Origin: a virus
Taxonomy: Duplodnaviria > Heunggongvirae > Uroviricota > Caudoviricetes
Reading direction: 5' to 3' (one strand)
DNA: 13,954 nt
IMG/VR virus record: IMGVR_UViG_2778261136_000001
Location: 1-13,954 of that record
This document shows positions 146 to 4,606 of the stretch, in pieces. The translations under genes were made by a program, and so were the position numbers. Position 1 is the first letter of the stretch; each line of letters opens with the position of its first letter. The notes below the pieces were generated by a model, which was not told where the DNA came from, searched no databases, and worked only from the letters and a program-made list of their open reading frames with translations.

Positions 146-679
146 ATGAGCCGGAAATTCCGCTATGGTTTATCAGCTGTCGTTCTGGCGCTGATTGCCG
201 CAGGGGCTTCTGCGCCTGAAATCCTCGACCAGTTTCTTGACGAAAAAGAAGGTAACCACACTACGGCATACCGTGATGGTGCGGGTATCTGGACCATCTG
301 CCGTGGAGCCACCCGGGTGGATGGTAAGCCTGTTATTCCTAGCATGAAGCTGTCGAAGGGGAAATGCGACCAGGTTAACGCCATTGAGCGTGATAAGGCG
401 CTGGCATGGGTGGCGAAAAACATCAAAGTGCCACTGACTGAACCCCAGAAAGCGGGTATTGCGTCATTCTGTCCTTACAACATTGGCCCGGGTAAGTGTT
501 TCAGCTCAACGTTTTACCGGAAACTGAACGCCGGAGACCGTAAAGGCGCATGTGCTGAAATTCGTCGCTGGATATATGACGGTGGTCAGGACTGCCGTAT
601 TCGTTCAAACAACTGTTACGGTCAGGTATCCCGTCGTGACCAGGAGAGCGCGCTGGCGTGCTGGGGTATCGACAGGTAG
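146..679 (+). CDS. R: SAR endolysin (T4-type lysozyme / muramidase, phage 21 R-like)
   Basis: 177-aa ORF with SD GGGGAGAG at 131-138. N-terminus MSRKFRYGLSAVVLALIAAGASAPE is a weakly hydrophobic Gly/Ala-rich signal-anchor-release segment. It is followed by the lysozyme catalytic arrangement E...(8)...D...(5)...T in ...KEGNHTTAYRDGAGIWTICRG. Position immediately after a holin gene. Confidence 0.9.
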   Translation: MSRKFRYGLSAVVLALIAAGASAPEILDQFLDEKEGNHTTAYRDGAGIWTICRGATRVDGKPVIPSMKLSKGKCDQVNAIERDKALAWVAKNIKVPLTEPQKAGIASFCPYNIGPGKCFSSTFYRKLNAGDRKGACAEIRRWIYDGGQDCRIRSNNCYGQVSRRDQESALACWGIDR

Positions 680-814
680 CAGAATATTTTGCTGAAAAAT
701 GACGCTTGCTCACGCGGGCTGATAACACGAAATCCTGCGAACTGGCAAAATGCAAGTGAATAAAGTCAGGAAGATTGTTTCACGCAGAGGCACCGTAATG
801 GTGTCTTTGTCATT

Positions 815-952
815 TCTGCGCTTCGCACAAGCGTAAATAAACCAAAGAACCTTTCAGGATGAGCCCTGGTGGATAACCGGCAGTGGTCTGGTTAACCCTC
901 TTTGGGCTGGTTATTCCTGTGCGCAGGGTTCATCACTAAAAGGAAATAACCG
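815..952 (+). promoter_or_regulatory. Conserved 5' leader element, copy 1 (paralog of 2185..2318), upstream of the antirepressor-like gene
   Basis: Shares with copy 2 a GC hairpin (819-833, CGCTT-CGCAC-AAGCG), a 5' box AGAACCTTTCAGGATGA (846-862), a 3' box GGTTCATCACTAAAAGG (927-943) containing the SD, and the same 9-nt SD-to-ATG spacing with ATGAAT start context. The ~65-nt core between the boxes diverges. Confidence 0.6.
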
Positions 953-1522
953 ATGAATATGATGACCGTGCCGTTTCACGGCGATTCTCTTTATGTGGTT
1001 AACCATAACGGTGAGCCATACGTTCCCATGAAACCTGTCGTTGCGGGGATGGGGCTGGCCTGGCAATCACAGTTGGCTAAGTTAAGACAGCGTTTTGTGT
1101 CAACTATAACGGAAATCGTTATGGTTGCTGAGGATGGGAAACGACGCAATATGGTGTCCCTGCCACTTCGAAAACTTGCAGGCTGGTTACAAACCATCAA
1201 TCCCAACAAAGTAAAACCCGAAATCCGCGACAAGGTAATCCAGTATCAGGAAGAGTGCGACGATGTTCTCTATGAATACTGGACGAAGGGTTTTGTCGTT
1301 AATCCTCGTCAAATGAGCGTGATGGAAGAACTCAATCAGGCCTGCGCTGACATGAAACGGGATAAAAACATTGCCAGTGTGTTTTCTACCGGGCTGAATG
1401 AGTGGAAACAGGTTAAAGCCGCGCATGTATCAAAAATCCGCACATTGATAAACGAAGCGAATCTGCTGATTGATTTTGTCCTGGCTGATACAGGCAAAGG
1501 GAAAATAACAAAGGCGGATTGA
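953..1522 (+). CDS. Antirepressor-like phage regulatory protein (moron inserted between R and Rz)
   Basis: 189-aa ORF with SD AAAAGG 9 nt upstream. N-terminal region MNMMTVPFHGDSLYVVNHNGEPYVPMKPVVAGMGLAWQSQLAKL... resembles, from memory, the N-terminal domain family of P22-type antirepressors found in enterobacterial prophages. The function is not established from sequence alone. Confidence 0.55.
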   Translation: MNMMTVPFHGDSLYVVNHNGEPYVPMKPVVAGMGLAWQSQLAKLRQRFVSTITEIVMVAEDGKRRNMVSLPLRKLAGWLQTINPNKVKPEIRDKVIQYQEECDDVLYEYWTKGFVVNPRQMSVMEELNQACADMKRDKNIASVFSTGLNEWKQVKAAHVSKIRTLINEANLLIDFVLADTGKGKITKAD

Positions 1523-1536
1523 TGGAGTGGTGGCTA

Positions 1537-1671
1537 ATGATATCGGATAAACTCATAACGCTGGCGAAGATTCTCTGTGTAATCGTCGGCATTTCATTTT
1601 TAGTCATGCTGGTTGCCATTTTCTTTTCCACCGCCTGGAGAGTCCTGACGTTATCGGGACTGGTGGGGTGA
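1537..1671 (+). CDS. Small hydrophobic protein (44 aa, predicted single transmembrane helix); not in the supplied ORF track
   Basis: ATG at 1537 with GGAG at 1524-1527, TGA at 1669-1671. Translation MISDKLITLAKILCVIVGISFLVMLVAIFFSTAWRVLTLSGLVG is almost entirely one hydrophobic helix. It fills the gap between the ant-like gene and Rz with no wasted sequence. Coding status is unproven. Confidence 0.35.
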   Translation: MISDKLITLAKILCVIVGISFLVMLVAIFFSTAWRVLTLSGLVG

Positions 1672-1678
1672 AAGAGAG

Positions 1679-2116
1679 ATGAACCGTGTTCTGTGTGTGG
1701 TGATTATTGTCCTGGCGGTTGGCTGTGGTGCGCTGTGGCTGGCAACAAACCATTACCGTGACAACGCGCTCACCTACAAAGCGCAGCGCGATAAAGCCAC
1801 ATCCATCATCGCAGATATGCAGAAGCGGCAACGTGATGTAGCAGAACTTGACGCCAGATACACAAAGGAGCTTGCTGATGCTAATGCGACTATCGAAAGT
1901 CTCCGTGCTGATGTTTCTGCTGGGCGTAAGCGCCTGCAAGTCGCCGCCACCTGTGCAAAGTCAACGACCGGAGCCAGCAGCATGGGCGATGGAGAAAGCC
2001 CAGGACTTACAGCAGATGCTGAACTCAATTATTACCGTCTCAGAAGTGGAATCGACAAGATAACCGCGCAGGTTAACTACCTGCAGGAATACATCAGGAC
2101 GCAATGCCTGAAATAA
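1679..2116 (+). CDS. Rz: Rz inner-membrane spanin (i-spanin)
   Basis: 145-aa ORF with N-terminal TM segment and the motif ATNHYRDNALTYKAQRDK...DARYTKELADA...DVSAGRKRL, which closely parallels lambda Rz (VNHYRDNAITYKAQRDK...AKYTKELADA...DVAAGRRRL) as I recall it. Coiled-coil periplasmic domain. It contains the embedded Rz1 frame. Confidence 0.9.
   Translation: MNRVLCVVIIVLAVGCGALWLATNHYRDNALTYKAQRDKATSIIADMQKRQRDVAELDARYTKELADANATIESLRADVSAGRKRLQVAATCAKSTTGASSMGDGESPGLTADAELNYYRLRSGIDKITAQVNYLQEYIRTQCLK
1878..2063 (+). CDS. Rz1: Rz1 outer-membrane lipoprotein spanin (o-spanin), embedded in the +1 frame of Rz
   Basis: Perfect SD AAGGAG at 1865-1870, 7 nt before ATG 1878. N-terminus MLMRLSKVSVLMFLLGVSAC is a signal peptide ending in a lipobox (VSAC), followed by the Pro-rich mature region KSPPPVQSQRPEP. 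It lies entirely inside Rz in a different frame. The track ORF 1848..2063 is the same frame with an upstream start. Confidence 0.8.
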   Translation: MLMRLSKVSVLMFLLGVSACKSPPPVQSQRPEPAAWAMEKAQDLQQMLNSIITVSEVESTR

Positions 2117-2148
2117 TTTTTTTGCAAATCACAAAGTCCATTTAATGA

Positions 2149-2172
2149 GCCCCGCGATGCGGGGCTTTTTTA
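2149..2172 (+). terminator. Rho-independent terminator after Rz/Rz1
   Basis: Perfect 7-bp GC stem GCCCCGC (2149-2155) / GCGGGGC (2159-2165) with a short loop, followed by TTTTTTAT. Confidence 0.7.
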
Positions 2173-2184
2173 TGTACGCAGTAA

Positions 2185-2318
2185 ACGCGCTTCACACGCG
2201 CGACTTATGAACACAGAACCTTTCAGGATGACCCTTGAGGATGCCGGTTTGGTGATCGGTGCCTTTCTGTGGGCCGGAATCCTGTGTGACAAGGTTCATC
2301 ACTAAAAGGTGTGCACTG
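2185..2318 (+). promoter_or_regulatory. Conserved 5' leader element, copy 2 (paralog of 815..952), upstream of the Rha-family gene
   Basis: Hairpin CGCGC-TTCACAC-GCGCG at 2186-2202, 5' box AGAACCTTTCAGGATGA at 2215-2231, 3' box GGTTCATCACTAAAAGG at 2293-2309, then 9 nt to ATGAAT at 2319. It begins about 13 nt after the Rz terminator. Confidence 0.6.
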
Positions 2319-2861
2319 ATGAATTATCCAACTATCGTTAACGGCATCGATTTTCGAGATCTGATTTTTGTGGCAAACAACGATCCGGTTACAGATTCTT
2401 TTATGGTGGCAAAAGCATTTGGAAAGCTGCCGAAGAACGTAGTTCGTGACATTGAACGAACCATAGAAGCTTGCCCTCCTGAGTTTGATACAAAGCTCAA
2501 CTTTGAGCTTTGCTATAAAAACAATGAGTTACAGAATGGTAAGCCGCAAAAATTCTACCGTCTCCGCAAGGATGGGTTGATGCTTTTGGTTATGTCCTAC
2601 ACCAAAAAAGAAGCAATGCGTATCAAAATTGCTTACATCAACGCATTTAACTGGATGTACGCCATGCTTCAGGTTGGTCATCGTCAATTTGAAGAAGAGA
2701 GAAATGCCGTAATGCTGGAGTACATGAAAGAGAAGGATGTTGCCAGCATGTCAGGTCGCCTGCTAAATCGCTGGGGCAAAATTAAGAAGCCACAGCTGCT
2801 GGCTAGAATTGAACGCCTTGAACAGCACGGGCAAACCGTAATCCCCGGACTCATCAATTAA
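2319..2861 (+). CDS. Rha-family phage regulatory protein
   Basis: The track ORF 2259..2861 starts at GTG and reads through the leader. The likely true start is ATG 2319 (MNYPTIVNG...) with SD AAAAGG at 2304-2309. The region ...NDPVTDSFMVAKAFGKLPKNVVRDIERTIE...KFYRLRKDGLMLLVMSYTKKEAMRIKIAYINAFNWM matches my memory of the Rha regulatory protein family (HTH-like N-terminal domain). Confidence 0.7.
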   Translation: MNYPTIVNGIDFRDLIFVANNDPVTDSFMVAKAFGKLPKNVVRDIERTIEACPPEFDTKLNFELCYKNNELQNGKPQKFYRLRKDGLMLLVMSYTKKEAMRIKIAYINAFNWMYAMLQVGHRQFEEERNAVMLEYMKEKDVASMSGRLLNRWGKIKKPQLLARIERLEQHGQTVIPGLIN

Positions 2862-3019
2862 CGGCAGTACCGCGAAACAACCCAAGCCAGAAAGTGGGGA
2901 AATAACACTGGCAGCCACTGAAAGATGAACCTCCTGCCTTATGGCAAAAAAGATTCTTTGTGGTGGCGGACTGATGGAAAGACATCCTAATCAAGCAACC
3001 ACTCCACAGGGTCATAATT

Positions 3020-3400
3020 ATGAACGACCAGCAAATCGAAAAAGAAATCGTTGAGAAAGGCAAAACGGCACCGCGAATCACCCAGCAGCACATCGAAGAC
3101 GTGATTAAAAGCGAGCATTACTTTACTGCTTATGATGGACGAAATGGTGCCATTTCCAGCAACGAATATTGTGGCAGGGAAAAACCAGAAGAAGGAGATC
3201 GTGATTTATCACCATTGAAGTTGCTCACTTTCTGCGTACTGGTGCTGAAGAATGGCTTCACTGTCACCGGAGAGAGTGCCTGTGCAAGCCCGGAAAACTT
3301 TGATGCAGAAATTGGTCGGAAGATTGCCCGGCAGAATGCTGTAAACAAAATCTGGATGCTCGAAGGTTACTTGCTGAAGCAGAAGCTAAGCGAACAGTAG
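3020..3400 (+). CDS. Small conserved phage protein of unknown function (resembles the family I recall as N4 gp49 / Sf6 gp66-like)
   Basis: 126-aa ORF. The C-terminal part LTFCVLVLKNGFTVTGESACASPENFDAEIGRKIARQNAVNKIWMLEGYLLKQ matches my recollection of a widespread small phage protein family often found near terminase genes. The start codon has a weak SD, so the exact start is uncertain. Confidence 0.5.
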   Translation: MNDQQIEKEIVEKGKTAPRITQQHIEDVIKSEHYFTAYDGRNGAISSNEYCGREKPEEGDRDLSPLKLLTFCVLVLKNGFTVTGESACASPENFDAEIGRKIARQNAVNKIWMLEGYLLKQKLSEQ

Positions 3401-3799: not shown

Positions 3800-4606
3800 A
3801 TGGCAAAGCTGGACTGGAAAAAGCTGGAGCAGGCATTCCGACGCGAACATGCCGAAACGGGAATAACATTACTGGACTGGTGCCGGAAGAAAAAGATTAA
3901 TTACAACACCGCCAGAACCCGTATAAAAATGGGCAAAATCGATCATGAAATTGATCATAAAACCGATCATGAAATCGATCATGACATCTTAGATGAAGAA
4001 CCCTGCAATGACGCGGGTTCCGGCGATGAAAAATGCGCAAAAAACTCTGAAAAAAACTGCGCAAATTCGGCAGAAACGAAACGGATTCGTGGTTCCCGAC
4101 TTTTACCTCCTTCAAACGCTTTTTCTCAGCGCAACACCCACGCCGTAAGACACCGTGGATATGCGAAGTATCTTGAGGCAGATAACCTCATGGATGATGC
4201 TTCCGACATGGTGCTGTTCGATGAACTGGTGTTCACCCGGGCCCGCGCACTTTCAGTAACTAAGGCACTTAAAGGGATGTTCGCCGACCTGGAAGAGGCA
4301 ACTGACGTGGAAACCCGTGTTGCTCTTTACGACAAAATACTCAAAGCTGAACAGGCCCTTGACCGGAATATTGCCCGTATCGAGTCAATTGAACGCTCAT
4401 TGCTGACGCTGGACGTCCTGGCTGAGACAGCACCAAAACTTCGTGCTGACCGGGAAAGAATCAACGCCGCCAGAGATAAACTCAGAGCTGAAACCGATAT
4501 TCTGACCAGCCAGCGTCGGGGCGTTGTTACGCCTGTCAGTGACATCGTGTCATCGCTGCATGAAATGAGTAATTCGGGGAGACTGGATGACATTCCGGAA
4601 GAATGA
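3800..4606 (+). CDS. terS: Terminase small subunit (putative)
   Basis: 268-aa ORF immediately upstream of, and overlapping by 20 nt, the large terminase gene. The N-terminus (KLEQAFRREHAETGITLLDWCRKKKINYNTARTRIKMGK) looks like a helix-turn-helix DNA-binding region, and the C-terminal half is predicted coiled-coil/oligomerisation. It contains an internal GATC-bearing tandem repeat. Assignment is by position and architecture. Confidence 0.65.
   Translation: MAKLDWKKLEQAFRREHAETGITLLDWCRKKKINYNTARTRIKMGKIDHEIDHKTDHEIDHDILDEEPCNDAGSGDEKCAKNSEKNCANSAETKRIRGSRLLPPSNAFSQRNTHAVRHRGYAKYLEADNLMDDASDMVLFDELVFTRARALSVTKALKGMFADLEEATDVETRVALYDKILKAEQALDRNIARIESIERSLLTLDVLAETAPKLRADRERINAARDKLRAETDILTSQRRGVVTPVSDIVSSLHEMSNSGRLDDIPEE
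3938..3985 (+). repeat. Four tandem 12-bp repeats (ATCGATCATGAA-like), each carrying a GATC, inside terS
   Basis: Units ATCGATCATGAA / ATTGATCATAAA / ACCGATCATGAA / ATCGATCATGAC encode IDHE-IDHK-TDHE-IDHD. GATC occurs at 3941, 3953, 3965 and 3977, exactly 12 bp apart. Confidence 0.9.

Follow-up and report, generated by a model that had tools for sequence, protein, structure and literature searches.

A conserved, doubly pseudoknotted leader RNA in late regions of lambdoid and P22-like phages and its possible role in gating translation of toxic accessory genes

The sequence analysed here, referred to as the window, is a stretch of 13,954 nucleotides (nt) of the Caudoviricetes record IMGVR_UViG_2778261136_000001, which a megablast search identified as the late region of a Shiga-toxin-converting lambdoid phage of the 933W/P13374 type. 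The endolysin gene R is followed by an antirepressor-like gene, whose counterpart in phage 933W is annotated 'ant', by Rz and by a Rha-type gene, after which come a gp49-like gene and then the terminase and head genes. The antirepressor-like gene and the Rha-type gene are each preceded by a copy of the same leader, here called copy 1 and copy 2, which align over ~135 nt and contain the conserved blocks AACCUUUCAGGAUGA and GGUUCAUCACUAAAAGG. The subject of this study is the hairpin at the 5' end of copy 2, which an earlier note, made from the sequence alone, had compared with its counterpart in copy 1. Both hairpins, CGCGC-TTCACAC-GCGCG at 2186-2202 and CGCTT-CGCAC-AAGCG at 819-833, are present and appear in the minimum free energy (MFE) folds. 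The stems had been described as different in sequence and register; the former holds to a lesser degree than claimed, as the 5' strand GCGC is common to both (2187-2190; 818-821), while the alignment bears out the latter, with two extra adenines on the 3' side of copy 1 shifting the register. The hairpin is not an isolated element but the 5' stem, P1, of a larger conserved structure of ~125 nt. On balance, we favour the reading that this structure is a cis-acting, doubly pseudoknotted leader that would gate the translation of toxic accessory genes on read-through transcripts.

An exact-pattern scan of viral contigs with the first conserved block returned at least 120 loci, with at least 76 distinct true elements among the matches listed; about 15 exact 15-mer matches in viral contigs were discarded as chance occurrences in unrelated phages. 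A blastn search against phage records gave 234 records for the class of copy 2 and 154 for a diverged class, and the diverged members that were read come from Sf101, FSL SP-016, HK544, phi80, HK639, an Enterobacter phage and an Actinobacillus phage. The covariance model, built from 38 sequences with nested pairs only, found further diverged copies in loci already collected and matched more than 100 loci with E-values of 1e-7 to 1e-39, which is much more than chance could produce. Copy 2 scores 144.8 bits (E=3e-34) and copy 1 102.7 bits (E=3e-23), and both have the nested P1 and P2-P3-P4 helices, the two pseudoknots PK1 and PK2 and an end at the start codon, by which the family is defined. In nearly all of the ~100 matches the model ends 4-9 nt past the ATG, the two Gilliamella loci with 20 nt being the exception. 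In total, one architecture is common to about 100 distinct homologues, which were collected from an Actinobacillus phage and from phages and prophages of Enterobacterales and Gilliamella. Conservation of the pairing in related prophages had been set beforehand as the refutation test for the hairpin, and both the hairpin and its pairing were found in essentially all homologues; the proposed selection for a structure is upheld, in that an RNA structure is kept across the family.

Among 21 Rha loci fetched via the Rha protein with one genome per species, a leader match ends at the Rha start codon in 19, and the other two lack the upstream region; the loci with a leader include Raoultella, Trabulsiella, Rosenbergiella, Xenorhabdus, Mixta, Erwinia, Rouxiella, Scandinavium and Gilliamella. 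Phage P22 carries the leader in front of rha, and this region scores 53 bits. In the P22 record (locus L153, NC_002371.2) the leader spans 493-654 and the family Shine-Dalgarno (SD) sequence and AUG lie at about 640, while the annotated rha coding sequence (576-1181) starts inside the P3/P4 region; the annotated start of rha/ORF201 is therefore probably ~21 codons too far upstream. The class of copy 2 alone occurs in 809 of 5426 complete E. coli genomes with up to 8 copies per genome, and the element is present in hundreds of lambda-like and P22-like phages. PGAP places no annotation over the non-coding part of the E. coli matches; two matches reach as far as the ATG, and there the Rha gene next to them is the sole entry. 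With Rfam 15, no family matched the window at the gathering thresholds, and at E<=10 only chance matches driven by the terminator appeared (~2115-2226). Likewise, no leader was matched in 14 loci with diverged members, so that the isrK (RF01394), C4 antisense (RF01695) and Proteo-phage-1 (RF03044) families as well as the riboswitch and ribozyme families are covered by this result. A search of the available literature with the conserved 15-17-mers, and for Rha or KilA together with structured RNA, found no description, and two structured-RNA surveys mention nothing comparable.

Diverged members folded singly show a common nested layout, in which P1 is followed by a linker of ~14-22 nt and a long irregular hairpin formed by P2, P3 and P4. 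P2 comprises ~19 base pairs (bp) with conserved C·A and C·U mismatches and one bulge, and the apical P4 is short. Two segments are always unpaired in the nested folds: an internal loop of 5-7 nt between the 3' strands of P3 and P2, and the stretch between P4 and the 3' strand of P3. The first, located just 5' of the P2 3' strand, is complementary to the P1 loop (PK1), and the second is complementary to the linker between P1 and P2 (PK2). The P1 stem itself occurs as GCGC/GCGC, GCGU/ACGC, UGCC/GGCA, GUGUC/GACAC and GCGCC/GGCGC, and five of its five pairs change on both sides across the family; true covariation of this stem is visible only at this level.

Two alignments were evaluated, one made with MAFFT and one of 53 sequences that is based on the covariance model, with the pseudoknots added by hand. 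In the former, 95.3% of the cells are paired, with three to four Watson-Crick types at the pseudoknot pairs; for example, one PK1 pair is GC in 18, AU in 8, UA in 8 and CG in 1 of the sequences, and one PK2 pair is AU in 20, UA in 10 and CG in 8. In the latter, 93.9% of the cells are paired and 41 of the 46 pairs show compensatory changes on both sides, as opposed to 32-53% pairing in slid controls; none of 500 shuffles reached the observed values, and the covariation score of the whole structure is 0.432 versus 0.155 for the shuffles. The frequent G-U pairs in this alignment are valid on the gene strand only. Distal P3 pairing and P4 covary (helices 10-12) and recur in Sf101, phi80, HK544 and P22, and they replace the local hairpin CCGG..UCGG and a 'P5' stem GCC/GGC that the MFE fold of copy 2 had offered. 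An outer helix ('P0') in which the 16 nt preceding P1 would pair with the spacer from SD to AUG was rejected as well, with no signal at -4.56 kcal/mol for the own partner versus -4.65 kcal/mol for permuted ones. Judged by this comparative sequence evidence, the architecture is very probably that of a doubly pseudoknotted leader RNA consisting of P1 and P2-P3-P4.

PK1 exists in 19 versions, among them UCACAC/GUGUGA (copy 2), CGCAC/GUGCG (copy 1), UCUCAC/GUGAGA, UCGCAC/GUGCGA, CCGCA/UGCGG, UGCCC/GGGCA, ACGCCCG/CGGGCGU and CCGAAU/AUUCGG; CGCCC is also found among the P1 loops. PK2 exists in 27 versions, such as CACAGAA/UUCUGUG (copy 2), CCAAAGA/UCUUUGG (copy 1), CUCAGAA/UUCUGAG, CCAAGAA/UUCUUGG, CGAGAG/CUCUCG, CACCGA/UCGGUG, CAUCGAA/UUCGAUG and GCAUAGAG/CUCUAUGC. 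Although the pseudoknots are absent from the covariance model, 6 of 6 PK1 and 5 of 7 PK2 pairs covary in the model-based alignment, where 94% of the PK1 cells are paired. An alignment-free permutation test was carried out with 62 non-redundant leaders and 2000 permutations, counting leaders that form at least 5 contiguous pairs with the partner. With their own partner this was the case for 58 leaders (PK1) and 59 leaders (PK2), compared with a mean of 29 and 26 and a maximum of 38 and 37, respectively, for permuted partners. The predicted duplex energies of the two pseudoknots are about -6 and -7 kcal/mol. Since the P1 loop changes together with its complementary segment, its partner is RNA, and the loop appears 'kept' because it pairs with a segment ~90 nt downstream; the G/A difference between the loops of the two copies is compensated by a C/U difference (922 versus 2287). 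The loop core is indeed similar in the two copies of the window, as the earlier note had stated, but its sequence varies across the family, and a loop-specific protein binding site, which the note had considered, gives way to the covarying RNA partner. The note was right on structural selection, wrong on the reason for the retention of the loop and incomplete on the extent of the element.

In phages with two or three leaders (the window with 802-960 and 2171-2325; L010, L015, L084, L097 and L146, where L denotes a collected locus) PK1 and PK2 differ from copy to copy, which would prevent cross-pairing between copies on one long transcript; L005 is a partial exception, as the PK2 core CACAGA is common to its two copies. 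A recombinant leader was observed at L056 (2504-2659), whose 5' part is of the copy 1 type and whose 3' part is of the 933W type, so that both pseudoknots are mismatched. Among about 99 distinct sequences it is the only leader with broken pseudoknots, which suggests that exchange inside the leader occurs and is usually selected against.

The coordinates of the features in the window are listed in Table 1.

Table 1. Features of the two leader copies and adjacent genes in the window.
Feature	Position	Strand	Basis or remarks
Leader copy 2	2186-2310	+	~125 nt
Copy 2 P1 hairpin, CGCGC/GCGCG, loop UUCACAC	2186..2202	+	Sequence and MFE fold; family covariation
Copy 2 PK1 5' strand, P1 loop UCACAC	2192..2197	+	Partner 2284-2289
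Copy 2 PK1 3' strand GUGUGA, P3/P2 internal loop	2284..2289	+	Unpaired in every nested MFE fold
Copy 2 PK2 5' strand CACAGAA, P1-P2 linker	2212..2218	+	Partner 2265-2271
Copy 2 PK2 3' strand UUCUGUG, between P4 and P3 3' strand	2265..2271	+	Partner 2212-2218
Copy 2 P2 5' strand CCUUUCAGGAUGACCCUUG	2219..2237	+	First five bases are the anti-SD
Copy 2 P2 3' strand CAAGGUUCAUCACUAAAAGG	2290..2309	+	Terminal AAAGG (2305-2309) is the SD
Copy 2 P3, 2239-2242 and 2244-2247 with 2274-2277 and 2279-2282	2239..2282	+	
Copy 2 P4, enclosed by P3	2251-2253 with 2261-2263	+	Covariation; also in Sf101, phi80, HK544 and P22
Copy 2 proposed alternative helix, 5' strand GAACCUU	2216..2222	+	Partner AAGGUUC 2291-2297; prediction
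Intrinsic terminator after Rz, stem-loop 2147-2167 and T-run to 2173	2147..2173	+	Terminator scan
Leader copy 1	817-944	+	Member of the ~125-nt leader family
Copy 1 P1 hairpin, loop CGCAC (824-828) as PK1 5' strand	817..835	+	MFE fold, alignment
Copy 1 PK1 3' strand GUGCG	919..923	+	
Copy 1 PK2 5' strand CCAAAGA	842..848	+	Partner UCUUUGG 899-905
Copy 1 P2 (850-868 with 924-943), P3 (871-881 with 906-917) and P4 (885-887 with 895-897)	850..943	+	
Copy 1 SD AAAGGA	939-944	+	
Weak terminator-like hairpin (GGCACC..GGUGUC) with U-rich tail, upstream of copy 1	789..815	+	Sequence and custom scan; not listed by the terminator tool scan
Endolysin R	146-679		First gene of the order given
Antirepressor-like gene downstream of copy 1	953-1522	+	P22_AR_N and ORF11CD3 (Pfam), ATG 953
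Rz	1679-2116		
Rha-type gene downstream of copy 2	2319-2861	+	Phage_pRha and ORF11CD3 (Pfam), ATG 2319

The terminator reported ~13 nt upstream of the copy 2 hairpin was recovered by the terminator scan, and a terminator-like hairpin with a T-run precedes 87 of the 98 distinct leaders, mostly 5-24 nt before P1; several of the exceptions carry imperfect versions. A consensus scan of 600-3100 near the leaders found no sigma-70-like promoter at either copy, although weak or activator-dependent promoters could escape such a scan. The earlier note had left read-through and an invisible promoter side by side. Since no promoter was found, the RNA would come from the late transcript reading through the terminators via Q, and Q-antiterminated late read-through, inferred from established lambdoid biology, is the likely source of the leader RNA. 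The description as 'moron-like' holds for the conserved order of terminator, leader and gene; however, a true moron has its own promoter, which was not detected here, and the terminator lies upstream and not downstream of the gene. P1 itself was rejected as an intrinsic terminator or attenuator, as it is followed by GACUUAUGAAC in copy 2 and UAAAUAAACC in copy 1 and terminators were called only upstream of it. A leader peptide was rejected as well: depending on the member, the open reading frame (ORF) that begins at the AUG in CAGGAUGA has 25, 5 or 12 codons, the AUG is missing in the Sf101/phi80 class, and the indels are not multiples of three.

The genes downstream of the leader encode Rha, KilA-N (with ORF11CD3 or P63C), P22_AR_N, AntA and ANT/KilAC proteins, two kinds of HNH endonuclease and a TerB-domain protein, and for many of these proteins toxicity is known or expected. 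In IHF-deficient hosts, for example, Rha inhibits the growth of the phage (as summarised in PMC4936722). A GC-rich class of leaders (L005 2106-2254; L084 9809-9957 on the minus strand; L032 3259-3407) lies in the 'stx slot' of stx-negative 933W-like prophages, where the TerB-domain gene that it precedes fills the position downstream of Q, tRNA genes and a terminator; this gene encodes 143 amino acids, is frameshifted in L005 and is followed by a match to Rfam STnc100. No leader was found upstream of stx of 933W (L126). Tandem leaders ~160 nt apart occur in L010 (2329-2477 and 2641-2797) and likewise in L013 and L072; the first leader is followed only by what is left of an AntA-type gene, of which L004 has the intact form.

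Three further observations concern the surroundings of the leaders in the window. Between the antirepressor-like gene and Rz, a 50-codon ORF (1519-1671; ATG 1523) encodes a hydrophobic product (MEWWLMISDKLITLAKILCVIVGISFLVMLVAIFF...), which may be a small membrane protein of the lysis cassette. The intergenic region between the Rha-type and the gp49-like gene (2862-3019) shows visible homology to the P22 small RNA 'P22G' (PMC13397905) and contains a weak, sub-threshold match to Rfam Proteo-phage-1 (2881-2916, E=8.3); another conserved RNA may be located here. At 3935-3994, inside the ORF 3800-4606, a 12-nt unit is repeated in tandem about five times (AAAATCGATCAT and variants).

The position of P2 relative to the start codon leads to the functional interpretation. 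In copy 2, CCUUU (2219-2223) pairs with the SD AAAGG, which lies 9 nt before the ATG, and in copy 1 the corresponding pairing is formed by 850-854 and 939-943. This pairing is kept in all classes with a few compensatory changes (helices 5-7 of the model-based alignment), and it is kept despite a wholly different remainder of P2, such as AGAAAG/CUUUCU in Sf101 and GGGUGAGC/GCUCACCC in the GC-rich class. The SD bases have a predicted unpaired probability of 0.002-0.12 in the thermodynamic ensemble without pseudoknots. Moreover, PK2 ends exactly where P2 starts and therefore caps the SD helix, while PK1 is located at the P2/P3 junction. The simplest reading of the modelled structure, and one we hold to be reasonably probable, is a clamp that keeps the ribosome-binding site closed. 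According to this proposal, the Q-antiterminated late transcript would read through the terminator just upstream and carry the leader, which would fold into P2-P3-P4 so that basal P2 pairs the SD of the next gene with CCUUU. The 5' domain would clamp the long hairpin shut via PK1 and PK2, and translation of the downstream accessory gene would be held off or kept very low. It could be switched on during a brief period after synthesis or whenever formation of the pseudoknots is prevented.

An alternative fold adds to this picture. An imperfect direct repeat makes up the 5' half of the leader, with GAACCUUUCAGGAUGA as the first and GACCCUUGAGGAUGC as the second unit, and because of this repeat the anti-SD can pair with an SD-like decoy. 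The 3' strand AAUCCUG...CAAGGUUC, which pairs with the second unit in the main fold, can pair with the first unit instead. In copy 2 this would result in seven Watson-Crick pairs between GAACCUU (2216-2222) and AAGGUUC (2291-2297), while the pairing with the second unit carries the conserved C·U mismatch. Because the alternative helix takes up the anti-SD together with the three final bases of the PK2 strand, it cannot coexist with P2 or PK2, and the true SD is left unpaired. When the transcript is cut just before the SD strand, the MFE structure is the alternative fold in copy 2, phi80 and P22, and in copy 1 the alternative fold is within 0.1 kcal/mol of the MFE. Among 42 non-redundant members, the anti-SD is paired with the decoy in 37 of the prefix MFE folds and with the SD strand in 39 of the full-length MFE folds. 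The alternative fold would accordingly arise on the nascent RNA, ahead of transcription of the true SD, and then give way to P2, or a switch would be set by whatever governs early formation of PK2. On these predictions, a regulated or kinetic switch is plausible, though held only tentatively.

Several points weigh against the proposal of a translational gate and its switch-like extension. The alignment on which the nested helices were counted had been fitted to them and is thus biased in their favour, and the energy predictions ignore the pseudoknots. Covariation of the alternative helix is modest, with a mean of 6.03 pairs for the own partner versus 5.69 +/- 0.14 for permuted ones and with some permutations reaching the own value, and this helix, itself a prediction, could simply result from the internal repeat. 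Occlusion alone does not account for so elaborate a double pseudoknot, because a plain hairpin could hide the SD. Furthermore, a Rha phenotype is seen in phi80 and P22 infections (summarised in PMC4936722); Rha is evidently made there, and the block must therefore be leaky or relieved.

A bolder alternative to a simple clamp is a new class of regulated RNA switches, in which a double-pseudoknot sensor would choose between an SD-free and a clamped fold and thereby set when toxic genes are expressed in phages of the lambda and P22 type, Shiga-toxin phages among them. This is a speculative proposal that we regard as possible but doubtful, and a small signal molecule, a host factor or the speed of RNA polymerase on Q-modified transcripts are tentative candidates for the input. 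A riboswitch in the strict sense, i.e., a double-pseudoknot aptamer whose small-molecule or ion ligand stabilises or destabilises the SD-sequestering P2, is unlikely. Of the features by which riboswitches are judged, a structured, compact multi-helix domain with two pseudoknots, the SD inside the closing helix, as in translational OFF riboswitches, and a conserved alternative fold are present. The conserved unpaired junction bases are few, namely an A after P2, a U before P4, GG after the PK2 3' strand and a U before the PK1 3' strand; however, conservation lies mostly in the helices without a junction core, there is no likeness to any Rfam riboswitch, and the downstream genes (Rha, KilA-N, AntA, ANT, P22_AR_N, HNH and TerB) are tied to no metabolic pathway and offer no clue to a ligand.

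Slightly less probable still is an element of RNA processing or stability, either as a substrate of RNase III or RNase E or as a protective cap, or as the source of a trans-acting small RNA. Cleavage in the P2 5' strand would remove the anti-SD and turn translation on, or release the stable RNA P22F. The latter is an abundant RNA of 89 nt that begins within the 5' strand of P2 and stops 6 nt short of the rha AUG (PMC13397905), and P2 and P3 form a near-continuous duplex of ~28 bp. However, the ends are known from a single small-RNA sequencing study and may reflect degradation, and a cleavage site would leave the need for two covarying pseudoknots unexplained. A common target in trans is unlikely because the pseudoknot sequences differ between phages.

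A role of P1 as the binding site of a protein, be it a phage late regulator or one of the host, on the model of boxB and N, has very little probability left, since the loop varies widely and always with its RNA partner, which outweighs the similar loop core in the two copies of the window and the GC-rich, well conserved stem. The loop of 5-8 nt is not GNRA-like, and a strict IHF consensus (WATCAANNNNTTR) was found in none of seven leader regions. The downstream products differ, and autoregulation by the encoded protein can therefore be no general rule. A boxB/nut antiterminator hairpin was rejected for the variable loop that covaries with distal RNA and for the location in the late and not the early operon. 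Lastly, a DNA-level feature without an RNA role, be it a recombination 'linker' between mosaic phage modules or a promoter or operator, would fit the leader sequence common to many different gene cassettes and the recombinant L056 that joins halves of two types, but it is largely refuted by covariation, with compensatory changes in 41 of the 46 pairs including the long-range ones, G-U pairs that fit one strand only, no promoter-like site detected near the leaders and a single broken-pseudoknot recombinant among about 99 distinct leaders.

The leader belongs to a widespread, uncatalogued family in terminator-leader-gene modules of lambdoid and P22-like phages. P22, phi80, HK97-like and Shiga-toxin phages are well studied, yet the leader is outside Rfam and unannotated in those E. 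coli and phage records whose match annotation was listed. It provides a handle on how phages hold toxic proteins of the 'Bro network' (Rha, KilA, Ant), together with free-standing HNH nucleases, in check in the late operon, on what underlies the unexplained IHF dependence of the Rha phenotype and on the exchange of accessory cassettes as terminator-leader-gene modules. The two covarying pseudoknots also recommend it for structural studies and as a starting point for engineered translational gates.

The proposed mechanism has parallels in several known systems. In the maturation gene of MS2, with its delayed folding, and in hok-type mRNAs, the SD is closed over a long distance and translation takes place only on nascent RNA before the final fold, which resembles the predicted succession from the alternative fold to P2. 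These systems belong to an RNA phage or to plasmids, their fold is different and they lack a double pseudoknot. Hairpins that sequester the ribosome-binding site silence upstream-initiated transcripts of the T4 genes e, soc and I-TevI and of free-standing endonucleases, and relief comes from a late promoter inside the hairpin. Toxic or timing-sensitive genes including endonucleases are concerned in both cases, but the T4 elements are simple hairpins and the leader has no detectable internal promoter. In the operators of the alpha operon (S4) and rpsO (S15) and in the SAM-II and preQ1-II riboswitches, a pseudoknot includes or abuts the ribosome-binding site and governs 30S access. These have a defined protein or ligand effector and one gene family, whereas the leader precedes many unrelated genes and has no Rfam match.

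Two phage RNAs are closer in biological setting. In the Salmonella prophage Gifsy-1, the fold of the IsrK/orf45-anrP leader silences translation of an antirepressor-like gene (PMC4825925; Rfam RF01394), and an alternative, active conformer exists, just as an alternative fold is predicted for the leader described here. Unlike the leader, the IsrK locus lies just downstream of a Q-like gene and has its own promoter, and activation is exerted in trans by the short IsrK RNA via an upstream ORF. Homology was rejected, as the locus is different and there is no model match; Rfam isrK found nothing in the window, and in L084 it matches outside the three leaders. P22F, in turn, was reported as an 89-nt RNA-seq species of P22 with 'no known function' (PMC13397905, 2026). 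It belongs to the same locus family and corresponds to the middle of P2, P3, P4 and the 3' part of P2, i.e., the 3' two-thirds of the P22 rha leader, which the present analysis extends by the 5' domain, the pseudoknots, the SD pairing, the family and its distribution, none of which are part of that report. Since P22F was detected, the leader region of P22 is expressed and relatively stable.

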